Shown here piece after piece: positions 4,274 to 59,876 of a stretch of 64,000 nt of DNA. The notes under the pieces are model-generated. The model was not told where the DNA came from and ran no database searches. It saw nothing but the letters and a program-made list of their open reading frames with translations. The DNA is from a virus. The stretch is from the UHGV virus genome UHGV-1579991. One strand, 5' to 3'. Every line of letters starts with the position of its first letter. Position 1 is the stretch's first letter. The position numbers and the translations under genes were made by a program.

Positions 4274-4280
4274 TTTGTGG

Positions 4281-4338
4281 CACATCATCACAAAACAAGC
4301 CAGCAGAATTGTCTGCTGGCTTGTTTTGTGATGATGTG
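4281..4338. terminator. 58-bp perfect palindrome (27-bp arms) between convergent terL and DHFR genes; putative bidirectional terminator
   Basis: cacatcatcacaaaacaagccagcaga / tctgctggcttgttttgtgatgatgtg are exact reverse complements; located between the stop of terL (4273) and the stop of the DHFR gene (4342). Confidence 0.5.
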
Positions 4339-4341
4339 CTG

Positions 4342-7397: not shown

Positions 7398-7473
7398 TTG
7401 TTTTGATGCAAAATGCAAAACAATATAAAATTGTTTTGATGCAAAATGCAAAACAATATAAAATTGTTTTGAT
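7398..7473. repeat. 33-bp tandem direct repeat (about 2.3 copies), each unit containing an 8-bp inverted repeat
   Basis: Unit ttgttttgatgcaaaatgcaaaacaatataaaa at 7398-7430 and 7431-7463, partial third copy to 7473; internal ttgttttg...caaaacaa inverted repeat. Lies between the ligase stop and the Cys-rich gene start. Confidence 0.7.
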
Positions 7474-10057: not shown

Positions 10058-10111
10058 TGAAGTTTATTGTTATATAGTGATATAATACAACAAAAATCTC
10101 AAATTTGCACA

Positions 10112-26845: not shown

Positions 26846-26916
26846 GCAATACGACAGGACTCGAACCTGCGACCTCGGATTGGACGTCCGCGCTCTTACC
26901 GCTGAGCTACGTATTC
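26846..26916 (-). tRNA. tRNA, anticodon uncertain (possibly Gly-UCC)
   Basis: Minus strand: acceptor GAATACG/CGTATTG (G1-G72 mismatch), D-arm GCTC-AGCGGTAA-GAGC, T-arm GCAGG-TTCGAGT-CCTGT; anticodon stem irregular (4 bp), loop CGTCCAA. Confidence 0.5.
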
Positions 26917-27009
26917 TTATCAATTGACTGCACTGCAATGCAATCAATCGTGCCAATGATATTTGACACGCATAATTGCAGTTATGCGTAACAATTCAAA
27001 TGTCATTTG

Positions 27010-27082
27010 AGCCAACTGCAGGAATCGAACCTGTAACCTGCTGAGTACAAATCAGCTGCTCTACCAATTGAGCTAAGTTGGC
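27010..27082 (-). tRNA. tRNA-Thr (anticodon UGU)
   Basis: Minus strand: acceptor GCCAACT/AGTTGGC, D-arm GCTC-AATTGGTA-GAGC, anticodon stem GCTGA/TCAGC with loop TTTGTAC, T-loop TTCGATT. Confidence 0.75.
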
Positions 27083-27164
27083 ATAAAGTCGTTGGGCCAT
27101 TGCAACCCAAACCTATCATCTTTGCCTAACCAAAGATGCAAGCGCTCTCTTACACCACGACTTG

Positions 27165-27235
27165 TAGCCGAACTTGGAGTCGAACCAAGCTTTCGAGAAT
27201 GAAAATCTCGCGTCCTAACCGATAGACGAAACGGC
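27165..27235 (-). tRNA. tRNA-Glu (anticodon UUC), non-canonical acceptor stem
   Basis: Minus strand: D-arm GTCT-ATCGGTTA-GGAC, anticodon stem CGAGA/TCTCG loop TTTTCAT, T-arm CTTGG-TTCGACT-CCAAG; acceptor GGCCGTT/TTCGGCT has two U-U mismatches at its base. Confidence 0.5.
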
Positions 27236-27419
27236 CAAGAGCAGTTCAAGTCTGCAGCATTGAACTGCGGAAACAATGCCTGTACGGGCAACCAATTGTG
27301 CAGATACAGCGACATTGCAAAATCACACCGAACCAAGTTTGTGGCTCTTCTGTCTCATAAAAACAAGTAATCATTACACTTGGCACCAATGATTTTGATG
27401 TAAAAATCGGTGTGTTACG

Positions 27420-27504
27420 CGGAGAGTAAGGGATTCGAACCCCTGGTACGTTGCCGTACAGTGGTTTTCAAGACCACCGCCATCGACCGCTCGGCCAACT
27501 CTCC
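27420..27504 (-). tRNA. tRNA-Ser (anticodon UGA), type II
   Basis: Minus strand: acceptor GGAGAGT/ACTCTCC, anticodon stem GTGGT/ACCAC loop CTTGAAA, 16-nt variable arm, T-arm AGGGG-TTCGAAT-CCCTT. Confidence 0.75.
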
Positions 27505-27697
27505 ATAAAACATTGCATAAGCATTCTTATCTCTTGATGAGGCCAAGTAGCTAATTTGGCAAGTTTGTTATATCTATCGTGACTGTTGCAGTTTGTTGTC
27601 ACTCAATACACAAAACTTTCGAACATTCATTGACAACACTGCAATATCGCTTTTTAAGCTCAGCCATCAATGTATTTATGCAATGTATAACAATTCG

Positions 27698-27779
27698 TAG
27701 CCAAACCGGGACTTGAACCCAGACTCCTAATGGAACAACATTTTGAGTGTTGCGTGTCTACCAATTCCACCATTTGGCC
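27698..27779 (-). tRNA. tRNA-Leu (anticodon CAA), type II
   Basis: Minus strand: acceptor GGCCAAA/TTTGGCT, anticodon stem CAACA/TGTTG loop CTCAAAA, 13-nt variable arm, T-arm CTGGG-TTCAAGT-CCCGG. Confidence 0.7.
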
Positions 27780-27876
27780 ATTTGCAAATGCAAGCTGTTT
27801 CACAACTGTTTGCATTTGCATTTGCATTGTTTAACACACTAAAATATGATTCATCTAATCAAAAACCAGAGAATTG

Positions 27877-27949
27877 TCGAGAATGTGCGATTTGAACGCC
27901 AATTATACGTCCCAAACGTATCGTGTTACCGGATTACACTACATTCTCG
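27877..27949 (-). tRNA. tRNA-Pro (anticodon UGG)
   Basis: Minus strand: acceptor CGAGAAT/ATTCTCG, anticodon stem ATACG/CGTAT loop TTTGGGA, T-loop TTCAAAT with a weak 3-bp T-stem. Confidence 0.6.
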
Positions 27950-27956
27950 TTAATTG

Positions 27957-28027
27957 TTGAACTGTCTGGACTCGAACCAGAAATATATCATCCAAAGTGA
28001 TATGTGTTACCATTACACCACAGCTCA
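27957..28027 (-). tRNA. tRNA-Gln (anticodon UUG)
   Basis: Minus strand: acceptor TGAGCTG/CAGTTCA (one G-U), D-arm GTG-TAATGGTAA-CAC, anticodon stem TATCA/TGATA loop CTTTGGA, T-arm TCTGG-TTCGAGT-CCAGA. Confidence 0.7.
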
Positions 28028-36071: not shown

Positions 36072-36117
36072 GCAAAAAGAAAGCCGAACTGAAATTCAGT
36101 TCGGCTTTCTTTTTGCA
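36072..36117. terminator. 46-bp perfect palindrome; putative bidirectional intrinsic terminator
   Basis: gcaaaaagaaagccgaactgaa / ttcagttcggctttctttttgc; T-run on the plus strand and A-run upstream (T-run on minus); lies between convergent genes 35362..36054 (+) and 36133..39339 (-). Confidence 0.6.
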
Positions 36118-39452: not shown

Positions 39453-42400
39453 TCAATTACATGCTGAATGTCCGCAGTTGGTGCATCGAACACAGCCGTC
39501 AAACTTGACCATGTCACCACCGCATTCAGGACACTTTGCATACATCTTTGAGCCATCTTGAATGTGTAGTTTCAATGCGCGACCAATTGCTTTGCAGAAT
39601 GTGCCAACAGATGCAAAGCTTTTTGCAGTTTGGTCGACAATTTCACCAAGGTCGATGCCATTGCGAAGCATCGTTGAGTACAGTCGAGTAATTGTTTGCT
39701 GCTCATCTGAACCAAGACGTTCTGAGATATTGTCATAGTGTTGCAAGAATGACAAATTATCACCAAGCTTGTAGTGCTTCTTATCAGTCTTTGTGATTGT
39801 CGTTTGTTCAATGCCTTGCAACTTGTCAAATTCGTCTTTGTCAAGTTCAAATGCAAAGATTTCATAGGGTCGACCATCATCACAACCTACAAGAATACAC
39901 CACTTACGCTTATACACTGATACACAATACACTGCAGCAGGCAATACAGGTTTTCGTTTTGAGCGATGACCAGACTGCAAGACATGCGACTTATCCTTAG
40001 ACTGCTTATCATCTTTTACGAGAACACCTGCACGTGAGCCATCTCGATAAATTGTGCAACCCTTGCAGCCAGATTTCCATGCAGTCAGATAAATTTCACG
40101 AACAAGCTCTTTTGTTGCAGAGTTTGGAATATTGACTGTTACAGAAATTGATGAGTCAATGTACTTTTGCAACGCGCCTTGCAGTTTAACCTTGCCAATC
40201 CAGTCAACATCTTCAGTAGTTGCCTTATAGTATGGTGATTGAACAAGCAATTCATCAATGACTGCTTGCGAAGCATTTGACAACCAAGCTTTGATACGAG
40301 ACATTTCTGCTTCTGACCATTCAATGCCAGTATCTTTGACAAGGGTGAATTTGTCATCACCAAGCTGCACTCGTTTGCAAATCCACTGCATCAATGGGTA
40401 GTGAACTACAGCGTATTCAATGAACTTGTCACCAGTAGTCTCATCAATGAAGTTGATGTCTGCTTCATTATCAACTGCAGTAGGCTTTCGACGACGTTTG
40501 TGCAGTGGCATAAAAACAGGTTCAATGCCAGAAGTTGTCTGAGTCATCAAAGCTGTGGTGCCAGTTGGCGCAATTGTTGTTGTGTTGATGTTTCGACGAC
40601 CAAATTGTTGATAAGTTGTGATGTGCTCATCATCAATCAGTTCAGATAACATACGCTGAATGAACTTTGACTGCACATCTGTGTCATAGTCGAATATTGC
40701 AAATGAGCCACGAATCTCTGCCAAGTCAATTGACGCTTCATAAGTCGCCTTTACAAGCCATTGTTGCATAGTGACTGCGAAGTCAATTGACTCTTGTGAA
40801 CCATAGCGCAAGCCAAGCATTGCCATTGCATCGCCAAGTGCAAGAAAGCCCATGCCATATCGACGAGTATTTGTCAATTTGTCATAGACTTTATGCCACA
40901 AGTCAAGCTCAGTTTTCTTAATGTCAAATGATTCTTTGTCTGATTCAACCTTTGCAATGATTCGTTGAACTGCTTCAATTTCAAGCTGCACAAGGTCATC
41001 CATGATGACTGCACAGTCATATGTATCTTTGTAGAATGCTTCAAAGTCAAATGATGCATCAGCAGTCCAAGGATTAAGCACATATGCAGTCAAATTGCGA
41101 TGTGATAAAATGCAGCTTGCATATGCTGCAAGAGGCTGTTCACCGCACTGCCTGTTGTTTACAAATACTTGCATATGTCTGTCATTTGTATCATTGACAG
41201 CGTCAAATGACCCTACAAAAAAGTTGTGATAATCATCTACAGTGCCATTATACACATCTTCTACACCATCAAGTTCAACAGTGTGTACCCTATGATTGTA
41301 GTAATCTGCAAACTGCTTAAACTTTCTGTATGACGCATGAATAGCAGCGTCAACATTGTTAGATTTGCATTCATTTGCAAATTCTTCATAATTTGGTCGT
41401 TTGCCAAGTTTTTGCTTTGCTGCAGTATATACAAGCACTTGTTCTTTAGACCATTTTGCTTGCTGAGCTGCGTGGCCGCATTCGGCAGAACAATATGCAA
41501 CTTCTCTATAAAACCAGTGCGCCCAAAATTCAGAGCCGCAATGTTCGCAAATACGTTTAACATACACTTGTTTGTCAACAAATTTAGTGTCATAGCCCAT
41601 ATTGCGAACTTTAATTGCTGTTGCTATGCATCTGCTATCAATGCCAACTAAATCAGGATATTTAACATTAGCGCGCGTTGCACAATGACTTAAAAATGCA
41701 TCAATAGAGCCAAATGTTTCTACTAATTTATTGTACCTGTAGCCAGACCATGCAACAGTATTATTGCCTGGCGCATAGCGCATATAGTATTCTAATTCTT
41801 TGCGACTAAGGCCTCTTCCAACTTTTGCAGTGCATTGCGTAACATAGTCTACAATTGATTGCACAGTTGTATCAATATCATATCTGCCATTACGTTCACC
41901 AGAAGTAGATGCACTCATTTTAGCAGAATACTGTGCAAAACGTTCTGCATTTGCTTTAATTTTGTATATTGGATTGTTAGTGCCTCTACGTTCAAGTGCA
42001 TGTAATGCATCATGCTCTTTTTTGCTTAGTACTTGTAAGTTATTTGGGTCATTGTTTAATGAATTGCCATCGATATGATGCACTACTGTGTGTGTAGCAT
42101 CAAACTGTTCAGCATGACAGTATTCTGCTATTAAACGATGCTCAAACTTATATACACCATTATTCAACACTGCATAATATGGTGCAGATTTGCTATTTGT
42201 TTGATAGCTAAGCACTTCATCAAATGAACATTGTTGTCTTGCAATAATTGCTAAGCTATCACCATGCTGTAATTGTCGTGCTTCTTTGTATGTGCCATCT
42301 GTTAACTTAAACTTGTGATTACCTGTGCAACGAATAACATCACCAGAATCAAGTGTAACTTTGTATATTTGCACATTTGAGCCTGTTTTGCGTGGATGCC

Positions 42401-43439
42401 GCATTTTGCGTACAACTACATTATTGTTGTCATCATAGCAATACACATTAACATCATCGCCAATATCTGCAAGTTCACGTATTGTCATTGTTTGTCTGCC
42501 ATCAGCAAGCATAACTTTAGTGCTGCCAACAATGCATGGATTTGTTGAGCGCTCTTCATACATTTTACCGTATGCTTTCGAGTTCGACTCTTCCATAATG
42601 CGGTCCCAAAAGAACACGCCGGGTTCTGCAGATGCCCATACATTGTCAACAATTTTGTCAAATAATGCTTTTGCATCTGATGTCTTATGCAGCTCTTGGC
42701 CATCAGAGCCACGCCAAATATGTTCAAACTGCTGTTCTGCAAGCACTGCACGCATAAATGCATCAGTAAGCTTGATGGAAATGTTTGCACCTGTGATTTT
42801 TGTCAAGTCTTTTTTTGCGTCAATGAACTTATCTGCATCAGGATGCTCAATTGACAATGACAACATCAATGCGCCACGCCTGCCATTTTGTGCAACTTCT
42901 TTTGTCGATGTTGAAAAGCGTTCCATAAATGACACGACACCAGACGTCGTAATAGCACTGTTATGTACTTCTACGCCTTCTGGGCGAATATGCGACAAAT
43001 CATGGCCAACACCACCACGACGTTTCATCAACTGAACTTGCTCTTCATCTGTTTTGAAGATGCCGCCATATGAATCTGCATCATTGCCTATTACATAGCA
43101 ATTTGACATTGATGTGTAACCGCCAAGACCGATACCAGCCATTGGAGAACCACCAAGTACAAATCGCTTAAATGGCTCAAGCAAATATGCAAGTCGCTCT
43201 TTTGACAATACACGTTTGCCTGTCTGTTCTTCAAATTGTGATTCTATACGGTCAAATTCATTGACCCAGCGCTCATGCATATCAGACAATGAGTGTTCAT
43301 ACAAATTGTCTTTGTCATGATGCAAGTATTTTGACATGCATATGTCAGCAGCCATTGAGTCGCCCGTAAATTCATGCGTCAGTGTAGTGTGCACTTCAGC
43401 ATATTCAGGCGACCCAATTTGAATGGGACGTTTTGTCAT
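39453..43439 (-). CDS. nrdJ: ribonucleotide reductase, class II (NrdJ)-like, intein-containing precursor
   Basis: Track ORF 39453..43499; likely start at ATG 43439 (MTKRPIQIG). Exteins reconstitute the RNR active-site motif NP-CGEQPL...AYASC; C-terminal Cys-rich zinc-ribbon-like tail. Class assignment is tentative. Confidence 0.7.
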   Translation of the reverse strand: MTKRPIQIGSPEYAEVHTTLTHEFTGDSMAADICMSKYLHHDKDNLYEHSLSDMHERWVNEFDRIESQFEEQTGKRVLSKERLAYLLEPFKRFVLGGSPMAGIGLGGYTSMSNCYVIGNDADSYGGIFKTDEEQVQLMKRRGGVGHDLSHIRPEGVEVHNSAITTSGVVSFMERFSTSTKEVAQNGRRGALMLSLSIEHPDADKFIDAKKDLTKITGANISIKLTDAFMRAVLAEQQFEHIWRGSDGQELHKTSDAKALFDKIVDNVWASAEPGVFFWDRIMEESNSKAYGKMYEERSTNPCIVGSTKVMLADGRQTMTIRELADIGDDVNVYCYDDNNNVVVRKMRHPRKTGSNVQIYKVTLDSGDVIRCTGNHKFKLTDGTYKEARQLQHGDSLAIIARQQCSFDEVLSYQTNSKSAPYYAVLNNGVYKFEHRLIAEYCHAEQFDATHTVVHHIDGNSLNNDPNNLQVLSKKEHDALHALERRGTNNPIYKIKANAERFAQYSAKMSASTSGERNGRYDIDTTVQSIVDYVTQCTAKVGRGLSRKELEYYMRYAPGNNTVAWSGYRYNKLVETFGSIDAFLSHCATRANVKYPDLVGIDSRCIATAIKVRNMGYDTKFVDKQVYVKRICEHCGSEFWAHWFYREVAYCSAECGHAAQQAKWSKEQVLVYTAAKQKLGKRPNYEEFANECKSNNVDAAIHASYRKFKQFADYYNHRVHTVELDGVEDVYNGTVDDYHNFFVGSFDAVNDTNDRHMQVFVNNRQCGEQPLAAYASCILSHRNLTAYVLNPWTADASFDFEAFYKDTYDCAVIMDDLVQLEIEAVQRIIAKVESDKESFDIKKTELDLWHKVYDKLTNTRRYGMGFLALGDAMAMLGLRYGSQESIDFAVTMQQWLVKATYEASIDLAEIRGSFAIFDYDTDVQSKFIQRMLSELIDDEHITTYQQFGRRNINTTTIAPTGTTALMTQTTSGIEPVFMPLHKRRRKPTAVDNEADINFIDETTGDKFIEYAVVHYPLMQWICKRVQLGDDKFTLVKDTGIEWSEAEMSRIKAWLSNASQAVIDELLVQSPYYKATTEDVDWIGKVKLQGALQKYIDSSISVTVNIPNSATKELVREIYLTAWKSGCKGCTIYRDGSRAGVLVKDDKQSKDKSHVLQSGHRSKRKPVLPAAVYCVSVYKRKWCILVGCDDGRPYEIFAFELDKDEFDKLQGIEQTTITKTDKKHYKLGDNLSFLQHYDNISERLGSDEQQTITRLYSTMLRNGIDLGEIVDQTAKSFASVGTFCKAIGRALKLHIQDGSKMYAKCPECGGDMVKFDGCVRCTNCGHSACN
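41148..42536 (-). mobile_element. intein (Hint domain plus HNH homing-endonuclease domain) inside the RNR gene
   Basis: In-frame 463-aa insertion from Cys at 42536 (CIVGSTKVMLADG) to ...VFVNNRQ at 41148, followed by the +1 Cys of CGEQPL. Contains HNH motif HHIDGNSLNNDPNNLQVLSKKEHDALH and intein block-F-like VYNGTVDDYHNFFVG. Confidence 0.75.
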
Positions 43440-43504
43440 TGTAACAGTGCATTTAAGTGTTTTAACAGTTTTATGTATAAATTGTACAACAATGGGCAAA
43501 ATTT

Positions 43505-43558
43505 TGCATCAACTCAAAACAGCCAAGCAATTCATTGCTTGGCTGTTTTGAGTTGATG
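43505..43558. terminator. 54-bp palindrome (26-bp arms); putative terminator or operator immediately upstream of the RNR gene
   Basis: gcatcaactcaaaacagccaagcaat / attgcttggctgttttgagttgatgc are exact reverse complements, separated by 2 nt; between the stop of 43565..43870 and the RNR start. Confidence 0.5.
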
Positions 43559-43564
43559 CTGCGC

Positions 43565-43870
43565 TTAGTATTGCTTGTATTGTATCTGCATTGCATCATA
43601 CAAAAGCAGTCGAACATCTTTGTTCATTGTAAGCTTTGACATTGTAGTTTCATGTTTGTCTTTGCCAATGTTAAAATTTACAATGGTGCTACCTACTGCA
43701 GACATCAATTGCAGAAAATTCAACTTTGTCATTGCTTTGCCATTATAACGTATCTGCTGTTGTTTGATAAGTTCGTCCATGTAGTCAAACAGCTGCCAAT
43801 TTTCTACATTGTTAGCTTTGACCGCTAATTCAAGTGTTTGACGATACTTGCTAAGCTTGTTTGTTGCCAT
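43565..43870 (-). CDS. hypothetical protein
   Basis: 101 aa ORF. Confidence 0.45.
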   Translation of the reverse strand: MATNKLSKYRQTLELAVKANNVENWQLFDYMDELIKQQQIRYNGKAMTKLNFLQLMSAVGSTIVNFNIGKDKHETTMSKLTMNKDVRLLLYDAMQIQYKQY

Positions 43871-44348: not shown

Positions 44349-44540
44349 TGTAGTAGAGGTTAAAATATATTGATATATAATAATTATACTACAAAGTTGC
44401 CAGATTTGCACCAGAATGTATAACAAGTTTGCATAAAAAAGTTTTTACATAAAATGGCAAACAAAAAACAAGCAGACTGCAATTGCAGCCTGCTTGCGCC
44501 AAAACAGAAAAAGATGATAACTTAACCCAAAAACCTAACT

Positions 44541-46890: not shown

Positions 46891-47050
46891 AGGGATGGCG
46901 AACTGTACACATTGTACACATTGTACACACTTATATTGTATGTGTTTGTATATGTATTTTAACAGGCATTAGCAAACAATACAAAAATGCAAAATGAAAG
47001 TGGCTCAGATGTATATCTGGGCCACTTTCATTTGTCATATACGTTGTCTA

Positions 47051-50196: not shown

Positions 50197-50222
50197 AGGA
50201 AGAGCTCAATTGAGCTCTTCCT
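50197..50222. terminator. 26-bp perfect palindrome; putative terminator
   Basis: aggaagagctcaattgagctcttcct; between the start of 49723..50178 and the stop of 50253..51125; shares the AGCTCAATTGAGCT core with the palindrome at 54522-54549. Confidence 0.5.
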
Positions 50223-54521: not shown

Positions 54522-54549
54522 CAAGACCAGCTCAATTGAGCTGGTCTTG
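54522..54549. terminator. 28-bp perfect palindrome; putative terminator
   Basis: caagaccagctcaattgagctggtcttg; directly downstream (transcript sense) of 54568..55140; CAATTG centre as at 50197-50222. Confidence 0.5.
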
Positions 54550-59530: not shown

Positions 59531-59610
59531 TTTTTATCATATTGATAATTGTACAACATGCAAATGGCGTTTGCATTTGATGCAACAATGACTTAGCTTG
59601 TACAGTTTGC

Positions 59611-59647
59611 AAAAAAGAACCGCTTGCAATCTAATTGCAAGCGGTTC
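59611..59647 (-). terminator. intrinsic terminator downstream of the putative capsid gene
   Basis: aaaaaa-gaaccgcttgcaat-cta-attgcaagcggttc: 14-bp perfect stem, 3-nt loop, followed on the minus strand by a T6 run. Confidence 0.65.
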
Positions 59648-59876
59648 AATGAATACGTTTGTCAGAAACTGTCAATGGTGCAATCGCTTGAAGAGTTAGC
59701 TGAACAACTTGTTGATGCGATTGCTGCATTGGTGACTACCAAGCAGCCCATTGAACATTGGATTCGACATCAACGTCTTTGTGGTTGTTGTTAAACTCCC
59801 CAAGCCAGCAAGTATCATTTAGCAAGTTTCCAAACTTAACGTACTTGTCGTTCCCCGGCTTGGGTGGCGCAGGTTG

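Follow-up and report, generated by a model that had tools for sequence, protein, structure and literature searches.

A perfect 54-bp palindrome before the ribonucleotide reductase gene of a large uncultured phage is a probable intrinsic terminator

Results

The window analysed here, a 64,000-nt stretch of virus genome UHGV-1579991, comes from a large uncultured phage, near-identical contigs of which (175–181 kb) are found in human-gut-type samples. The window encodes a terminase, DHFR, an NAD-dependent ligase, two topoisomerase II subunits and a major head protein, together with a cluster of seven tRNA genes on the minus strand (26846–28027). A megablast search of the region against 50,697 phage records returned no match. 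The gene downstream of the palindrome (39453–43439, minus strand) encodes the large subunit of a ribonucleotide reductase (RNR) of class II type, 1328 aa long with an HNH endonuclease-containing intein (Ribonuc_red_lgC match, E = 1.6e-73), which bears out the identity that an earlier note on this DNA had given it. The N-terminal part of the protein is most like B12-dependent class II reductases of uncultured gut and crAss-like phages (37–54% identity). Upstream on the same strand lies a 101-aa ORF, cassette A (43565–43870). Searches of Pfam and PHROGs gave no match for this protein or for the neighbouring 179-aa and 513-aa proteins, and the 101-aa protein has only five homologues in a set of 5.8 billion proteins.

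Between these two minus-strand genes sits a perfect palindrome of 54 bp, composed of two 26-nt arms (43506–43531 and 43534–43559) that are 100% complementary and flank a 2-nt loop. The earlier note had placed it at 43505–43558; the element is real and its true position, 43506–43559, is one base further on. The exact 26-bp inverted repeats do lie, as claimed, between the stop codon of the upstream gene (TAA, 43567–43565) and the start codon of RNR (ATG, 43439–43437). Among perfect stems with loops of at most 8 nt, none longer than 11 bp arose in 30 first-order Markov shuffles of the window, and stems of at least 10 bp occurred at a mean of 0.83 per shuffle, compared with 15 in the window itself. 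The RNR palindrome is thus far beyond chance. As minus-sense RNA, the hairpin alone is a 25/26-bp stem at −42.6 kcal/mol, and the segment 43600–43430 folds at −52.1 kcal/mol (z = −5.7 against dinucleotide shuffles). At the palindrome, Rfam returned only generic hairpin matches to miRNA models, at 20–33 bits against thresholds of 37–100, and across the whole window only the seven tRNAs. A riboswitch or a known sRNA was ruled out, as gathering and permissive thresholds alike gave hairpin noise and tRNAs.

Read along the coding (minus) strand, 5 nt separate the TAA of the 101-aa ORF from the start of the palindrome. Its outer 5′ arm, GCATCAACTC (43559–43550), pairs with the outer 3′ arm, GAGTTGATGC (43515–43506). 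Inside these arms, an A-tract (AAAA, 43549–43546) lies 5′ of an inner hairpin and mirrors the U-tract on its other side, where TTTT (43519–43516) pairs with it in the full palindrome. The inner hairpin (43520–43545) consists of CAGCCAAGCAAT (43545–43534), the loop dinucleotide GA (43533–43532) and ATTGCTTGGCTG (43531–43520), forming a 12-bp stem with six G-C pairs and a folding energy of −16.9 kcal/mol, and is our proposed terminator core. Directly 3′ of it runs a U-rich tract, TTTTGAGTT (43519–43511), the first four T of which are those that pair with the A-tract. The palindrome is followed by AAAATTTTGCCCATTGTTGTACAAT and then by 41 nt up to the RNR ATG (43439). The sequence therefore holds a G+C-containing stem-loop, an adjacent U-rich tract and a site past a gene end in the sense orientation, as intrinsic terminators do. 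In addition, the mirrored arrangement AAAA-stem-loop-stem-TTTT is fully symmetric, such that a hairpin followed by a U-run is read alike on both strands.

Most of the 15 perfect hairpins in the window are intergenic. Those of the ordinary gene-end class have perfect stems of 12–16 bp at −18 to −21 kcal/mol, with a T-rich tail (for example TTTTGTGTGC or TTTTTTGCAA) on the minus-sense side only. The RNR inner hairpin, with its tail TTTTGAGT, is slightly weaker than these and close to them in kind; the RNR element differs from the class by its mirrored A-tract and ten pairs outside the A/T tracts, which together make it symmetric and twice as stable. Three of the gene-end hairpins (44469–44496, 50197–50222 and 54522–54549) are centred on CAATTG (e.g. 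GAGCTCAATTGAGCTC) and carry T-rich minus-sense tails. The shorter hairpins show single-sided changes among relatives, and through such a change the hairpin at 44469–44496 has a G·U pair in minus-sense RNA, which becomes an A·C mismatch when the plus strand is read.

The mirrored A/T design recurs in three longer elements of the window. A perfect 60-bp palindrome at 4280–4339 (28-nt arms, loop ATTG) lies between the convergent stop codons of the terminase and DHFR genes, carries 12 extra outer pairs, and has an arm approximately 75% similar to the outer arm of the RNR palindrome. A perfect 45-bp palindrome at 36072–36116 (22-nt arms, 1-nt loop A) also lies between convergent genes and is of plain bidirectional-terminator design. 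The third, at 46987–47038, is imperfect, with 24-nt arms; one of its pairs occurs in three states (T/G in the window, T/A in relative L001 and C/A in relative L002), the intermediates of a compensatory change. No convergent transcription is directed into the RNR palindrome, since the flanking genes and all 12 copies of the promoter-like motif described below are on the minus strand. The bidirectional design is therefore without evident use at this site.

Given its position, strand and core anatomy, and its resemblance to the remaining gene-end hairpins, the element is most likely an intrinsic terminator. This agrees with the suggestion of the earlier note that the palindrome could end upstream transcription, for which the predicted anatomy and the placement after a minus-strand gene both speak. 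A consensus terminator scan does not list the RNR palindrome; we attribute this miss to the stem-length and tail rules of the scan and not to a real absence. The ten outer base pairs (43550–43559 with 43506–43515) are more than a terminator needs.

The sequence that follows the palindrome matches a motif shared across the window. There are 12 copies of TGTWGTAYWAT, each of them on the minus strand (at 10082, 14421, 25721, 32732, 35200, 35849, 43481, 44383, 51578, 57240, 58402 and 59548), against 0.44 expected; none of 100 shuffles reaches 12, and the window holds no plus-strand copy. Alignment of the sites yields the consensus TGCAAA-N16-TAcAAT, with TGTTG just before TAcAAT, which on motif statistics is a putative promoter. 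The RNR copy (43481–43508) comprises TGCAAA (43508–43503), a 16-nt spacer and TGTTG-TACAAT (TGTTGTACAAT, 43491–43481), and its TGCAAA box shares 3 nt with the last bases of the palindrome. The overlap with the RNR promoter region that the earlier note described thus holds for 3 nt of the −35-like box and not for the promoter as a whole. Its further suggestion that RNR is under separate control is plausible, given that the gene has a consensus promoter-like motif of its own that starts at the last 3 nt of the palindrome. The same order, a hairpin and then the motif, is seen in several other intergenic regions, including 44349–44540 and 59531–59876.

Several copies of the motif contain a small TGCAAA...TTTGCA dyad in the spacer. 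In the RNR leader, positions 43503–43497 read TTTTGCCC in most lineages and TTTTGTGC in two relatives (L007 and L024), and the latter variant produces a more symmetric TGCAAAATTTTGTGCA dyad within the promoter spacer. The leader also shares the string TTGATGCAAAAT with an intergenic tandem repeat located just downstream of the end of the NAD-ligase gene (7398–7473; a perfect 33-bp repeat, 2.3 copies, unit TTGTTTTGATGCAAAATGCAAAACAATATAAAA).

The dyad symmetry and the 3-nt overlap with the −35-like box would also suit an operator, in which a dimeric protein, either phage-encoded or a host protein like NrdR, binds the symmetric arms and controls the RNR promoter. The outer-arm word TTGCATCAA is approximately threefold enriched in the window (16 copies against 5.3 expected) and stands upstream of a few other promoter motifs, but most copies are intragenic on either strand. 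The NrdR box is a 16-bp sequence, acaCwAtATaTwGtgt. Allowing at most three mismatches, we find two weak matches in the window against 2.3 expected, and none within 43440–43565, which rules out an NrdR operator near RNR. The 26-nt arms are also far longer than typical operators, and their core has the look of a common terminator stem. A comparable palindrome is found where two genes converge on their stop codons and no promoter is close by, and in distant phages that encode a related RNR the gene is not preceded by a palindrome. The operator role raised in the earlier note does not hold up against the missing box, the mostly intragenic word and these distant relatives; it is the least supported of the readings, and we regard it as highly improbable. 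As binding-site candidates, TTGCATCAA and GCATCAAM were set aside, as a two- to threefold enrichment made up mostly of intragenic copies is too weak.

Collections hold only a handful of relatives of this phage, which we grouped into seven distinct lineages, the window's included, that are 3–5% apart in the adjacent 960 nt of RNR. Logan and MEGAHIT assemblies made from other samples also contain the window's strain (L010, L011, L015–L017). The other lineages are represented by two IMG/VR contigs (L001 and L002), a SPAdes contig (L007), and L020/L021, L022/L023 and L024, which were found through homologues of the 101-aa protein. The palindrome is kept in all seven lineages and so are its outer pairs, with the outermost pair in L007 as the sole loss. 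In the more distant RNR relatives L025, L026 and L008, the palindrome is absent upstream of the gene; conservation of the palindrome as a companion of RNR was ruled out on this ground.

The gene on the other side of the palindrome is variable. L001, L002 and L007 carry an unrelated 52-aa ORF in place of the 101-aa ORF, and the element sits just past the stop codon of that ORF as well. These relatives are homologous to the window from 47598 to about 43885; the homology then breaks off and resumes at 43559 (L001 and L002) or 43562 (L007), which places the breakpoint at the outer edge of the palindrome or at most 3 nt away. The second breakpoint of the replacement lies near the stop codon of the preceding gene, where there is neither a hairpin nor a module. 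In L022–L024 the 101-aa gene is truncated or frameshifted. Replacement, truncation and frameshift together indicate that the slot holds a dispensable accessory gene, as the 101-aa gene appears to be. The disrupted forms are a truncation to 71 aa or a split into 54 + 62 aa (L022 2501–2716, L023 653–868 and L024 2382–2689). The 52-aa cassette is absent from the rest of the window, nor did the two IMG/VR relatives yield the 101-aa one; these three sequences give no sign of cassette shuffling within the genome.

The intein is a second variable feature of the locus. At the intein region (41147–42534; approximately 41213–42515), L001, L002, L020 and L021 have a much shorter insert and an RNR of 1073 aa, and the long form is common to L007 and the window strain. 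L007 combines the 52-aa ORF with the long intein of the window, indicating that cassette and intein types assort independently. No hairpin is found at the intein, the other nearby break in homology.

Across the lineages the arms of the RNR palindrome are otherwise identical, and its loop occurs in two forms. In the RNR orientation the window strain, L002 and L020/L021 have GA, and L001, L007 and L022/L023 have its reverse complement, TC, as an inversion of the palindrome would produce. In each of the three sister pairs of a neighbour-joining tree built on the adjacent 960 nt, one lineage has GA and the other TC. Given the star-like shape of this tree and the likelihood of recombination, the number of flips lies anywhere from one to three or more. 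The two perfect sister palindromes behave in the same way: the loop at 4280–4339 is ATTG in the window, L012, L018 and L019 and CAAT in L013, and the loop at 36072–36116 is A in the window and T in L014. An exact reverse-complement loop between unchanged arms, which is the pattern expected of template switching or hairpin inversion, is thus found at all three sites.

Such flips could in principle arise during assembly, since a De Bruijn assembler with a k-mer shorter than one arm plus the loop cannot orient the loop, and flips appear only in palindromes with arms of at least 22 nt, the class that is ambiguous for small k-mers. However, the orientation is constant within a strain across assemblers, which argues against an artefact: for the window's strain, GA is read in the window itself, in two Logan assemblies and in a MEGAHIT k79 contig, and Logan and k119 contigs agree with the window on ATTG at 4280. 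The contig names also imply final k-mers of 79–141 or SPAdes multi-k assembly, which span one arm plus the loop, and the asymmetric or altered arms of L007 and L024 show real sequence evolution at the site. We judge an assembly origin to be very unlikely.

Changes are also seen in the arms. In L024 the A-tract has become AACA and the mirrored TTTT has become TGTT, leaving a stem that is still perfect (25 bp) and a U-rich tract that is interrupted and weakened (TGTTGAGTT instead of TTTTGAGTT). In L007 the tracts are A6 against T4, and the outermost pair is gone. The outer arms at 4280–4339 decay without compensation in L012 and L013, with core and A/T tracts intact. Variation in L007, L012 and L013 is concentrated on the outer or A-tract side, and the core hairpin is invariant.

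Discussion

We propose that the RNR palindrome is an intrinsic terminator of the symmetric, bidirectional type placed before RNR's own promoter, with its excess length and its loop flips produced by template switching; as a whole we hold this to be probable. A factor-independent terminator here would close a transcription unit that starts at the promoter motif 44383–44393 and comprises a 153/179-aa gene and the variable accessory ORF. The inner 12-bp hairpin (43545–43520) and the UUUUGAGUU that comes after it would do the work on the coding strand; we infer from this anatomy that transcripts stop there. Lying directly before the RNR promoter motif, the terminator would form with it a module that insulates RNR expression from upstream transcription. 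Because such a module must stay intact, it would also serve as the downstream border of the slot in which accessory ORFs are replaced.

The A-tract and the ten outer pairs would be superfluous for termination. This point counts against a terminator, as the RNA would be released before the outer 3′ arm is synthesized, leaving ten extra pairs idle that are nevertheless kept in seven lineages. Template switching is known to homogenize the arms of inverted repeats, extend their stems and invert their loops (PMC8794818, PMC8604942). Copying within the palindrome during replication could likewise have homogenized and extended the arms and inverted the spacers here, and would account for both the flipped loop and the change of both arms seen in relatives. 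The outer pairs would then be made and kept symmetric by the mutation process itself and decay in some lineages. Judged from the pattern of changes, template switching would be the most economical account of the extra pairs.

A role for the extra pairs in RNA would make the palindrome a double-stranded processing site, at which read-through RNA folds into a 26-bp helix and is cut by host RNase III, perhaps alongside termination. Cutting would detach the RNR mRNA from the message ahead of it, or would leave behind a 3′ hairpin with a protective effect, as at the intergenic RNase III sites of phage T7. RNase III needs roughly two helical turns, and the perfect helix of 25/26 bp (−42.6 kcal/mol) is longer than this. 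The full stem, including the outer arms, is present in seven lineages, L024 keeps it at the expense of the U-run, and processing would give work to pairs that are idle under termination. The change in L024 is less well explained by selection for termination than by neutral conversion of the arms or by selection on the long stem. But arm-to-arm conversion explains it without any selection, the uncompensated decay of the outer arms at 4280–4339 indicates that this genome does not as a rule preserve long stems, and the other gene-end stems, at 12–16 bp, we judge too short for the enzyme. We consider processing by RNase III distinctly unlikely.

The palindrome could instead act as DNA: extruded as a cruciform or hairpin, it would be a hotspot for recombination or nicking, or a site recognised by these processes, and would actively mediate the exchange of accessory genes and flip by recombination between its arms, termination being secondary. 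The replacement breakpoint at its edge or within 3 nt, the loop inversions in three separate long palindromes and the three sister pairs each split in loop orientation are all in keeping with this, and stem-loops of the promoter-early stem-loop (PeSL) type in T4-type phages have been proposed as possible recombination targets (PMC2839356). However, a single replacement event is seen and its other breakpoint has no palindrome, nor does the intein homology break fall at a hairpin. Loop orientation is stable within a strain across samples, indicating that flipping is rare and that no active switch operates, and selection on recombinants would also leave a breakpoint at the edge of an essential module. 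We think a DNA-level role unlikely. The broader proposition that the long palindromes are active DNA or RNA elements, as substrates for recombination or nucleases or as RNase III sites, which flip repeatedly and form the junctions of cassette exchange, is also on the unlikely side, though slightly less so. If true, it would give an unrelated gut phage a palindromic counterpart of the T4-type PeSL system.

As a terminator before a promoter, the palindrome would not be a special switch for RNR and would be part of the ordinary punctuation of this phage: terminator hairpins with a common promoter motif behind them. That motif offers a working transcription map for an uncultured gut phage of approximately 175 kb. 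Nothing about the element is new in kind; it is a neat example of palindrome dynamics at a predicted phage terminator. The comparative data are the more useful result: the replacement of the accessory ORF is precise and bounded by the module, and the series of loop inversions over three phage palindromes, with one change of both arms, bears the signature of template switching or hairpin-mediated conversion. Template switching would provide a simple reason why some phage terminators exceed in length and perfection what termination requires. If the flips are real, the sites would serve as handy markers with which to follow palindrome dynamics and the exchange of cassettes among phage populations.

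Among known systems, the intergenic RNase III hairpins of T7 resemble the RNR palindrome as long intergenic hairpins within a polycistronic phage transcript. T7 sites have internal loops and are not known to carry an adjacent U-run, in contrast to the perfect stem and adjacent U-run found here.

The intrinsic bidirectional terminators of bacteria and phages are closer, with a G+C-containing hairpin, a U-run, a mirrored A-run and a position a few nucleotides past a stop codon; the sister palindromes at 4280 and 36072 even lie between convergent genes, as classic ones do. The RNR stem differs from these in being perfect and, at 26 bp, roughly twice the usual length, with ten pairs outside the A/U tracts, and its site has no convergent gene or plus-strand promoter motif.

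The published template-switch mutations (PMC8794818, PMC8604942) share with our series the long perfect arms and the exact reverse complement of a loop between unchanged arms, seen here in three palindromes, and a change of both arms that keeps pairing, seen here in L024. Those cases come from rRNA and microRNA genes and yeast coding sequence; ours are phage gene-end palindromes.

PeSLs combine a sigma70-like promoter with a terminator stem-loop and are found at the borders of ORFs that have been inserted, deleted or replaced between close relatives (Arbiol et al. 2010, PMC2839356; Comeau et al. 2014, PMC4122927). The stem-loops described here are much longer and differ in sequence from site to site, with only 4280 approximately 75% similar; the module flanks the replaced ORF on one side only, and its promoter consensus, TGCAAA-N16-TACAAT, is a different one. 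In common with PeSLs, a predicted terminator stem-loop abuts a sigma70-like promoter motif in a large virulent-type phage, a resemblance drawn from sequence motifs; the composite recurs in several intergenic regions, borders an ORF replacement among close relatives and would isolate the cassette transcriptionally. By analogy, the RNR module may be called PeSL-like, a term that describes its design and implies no membership of the family.
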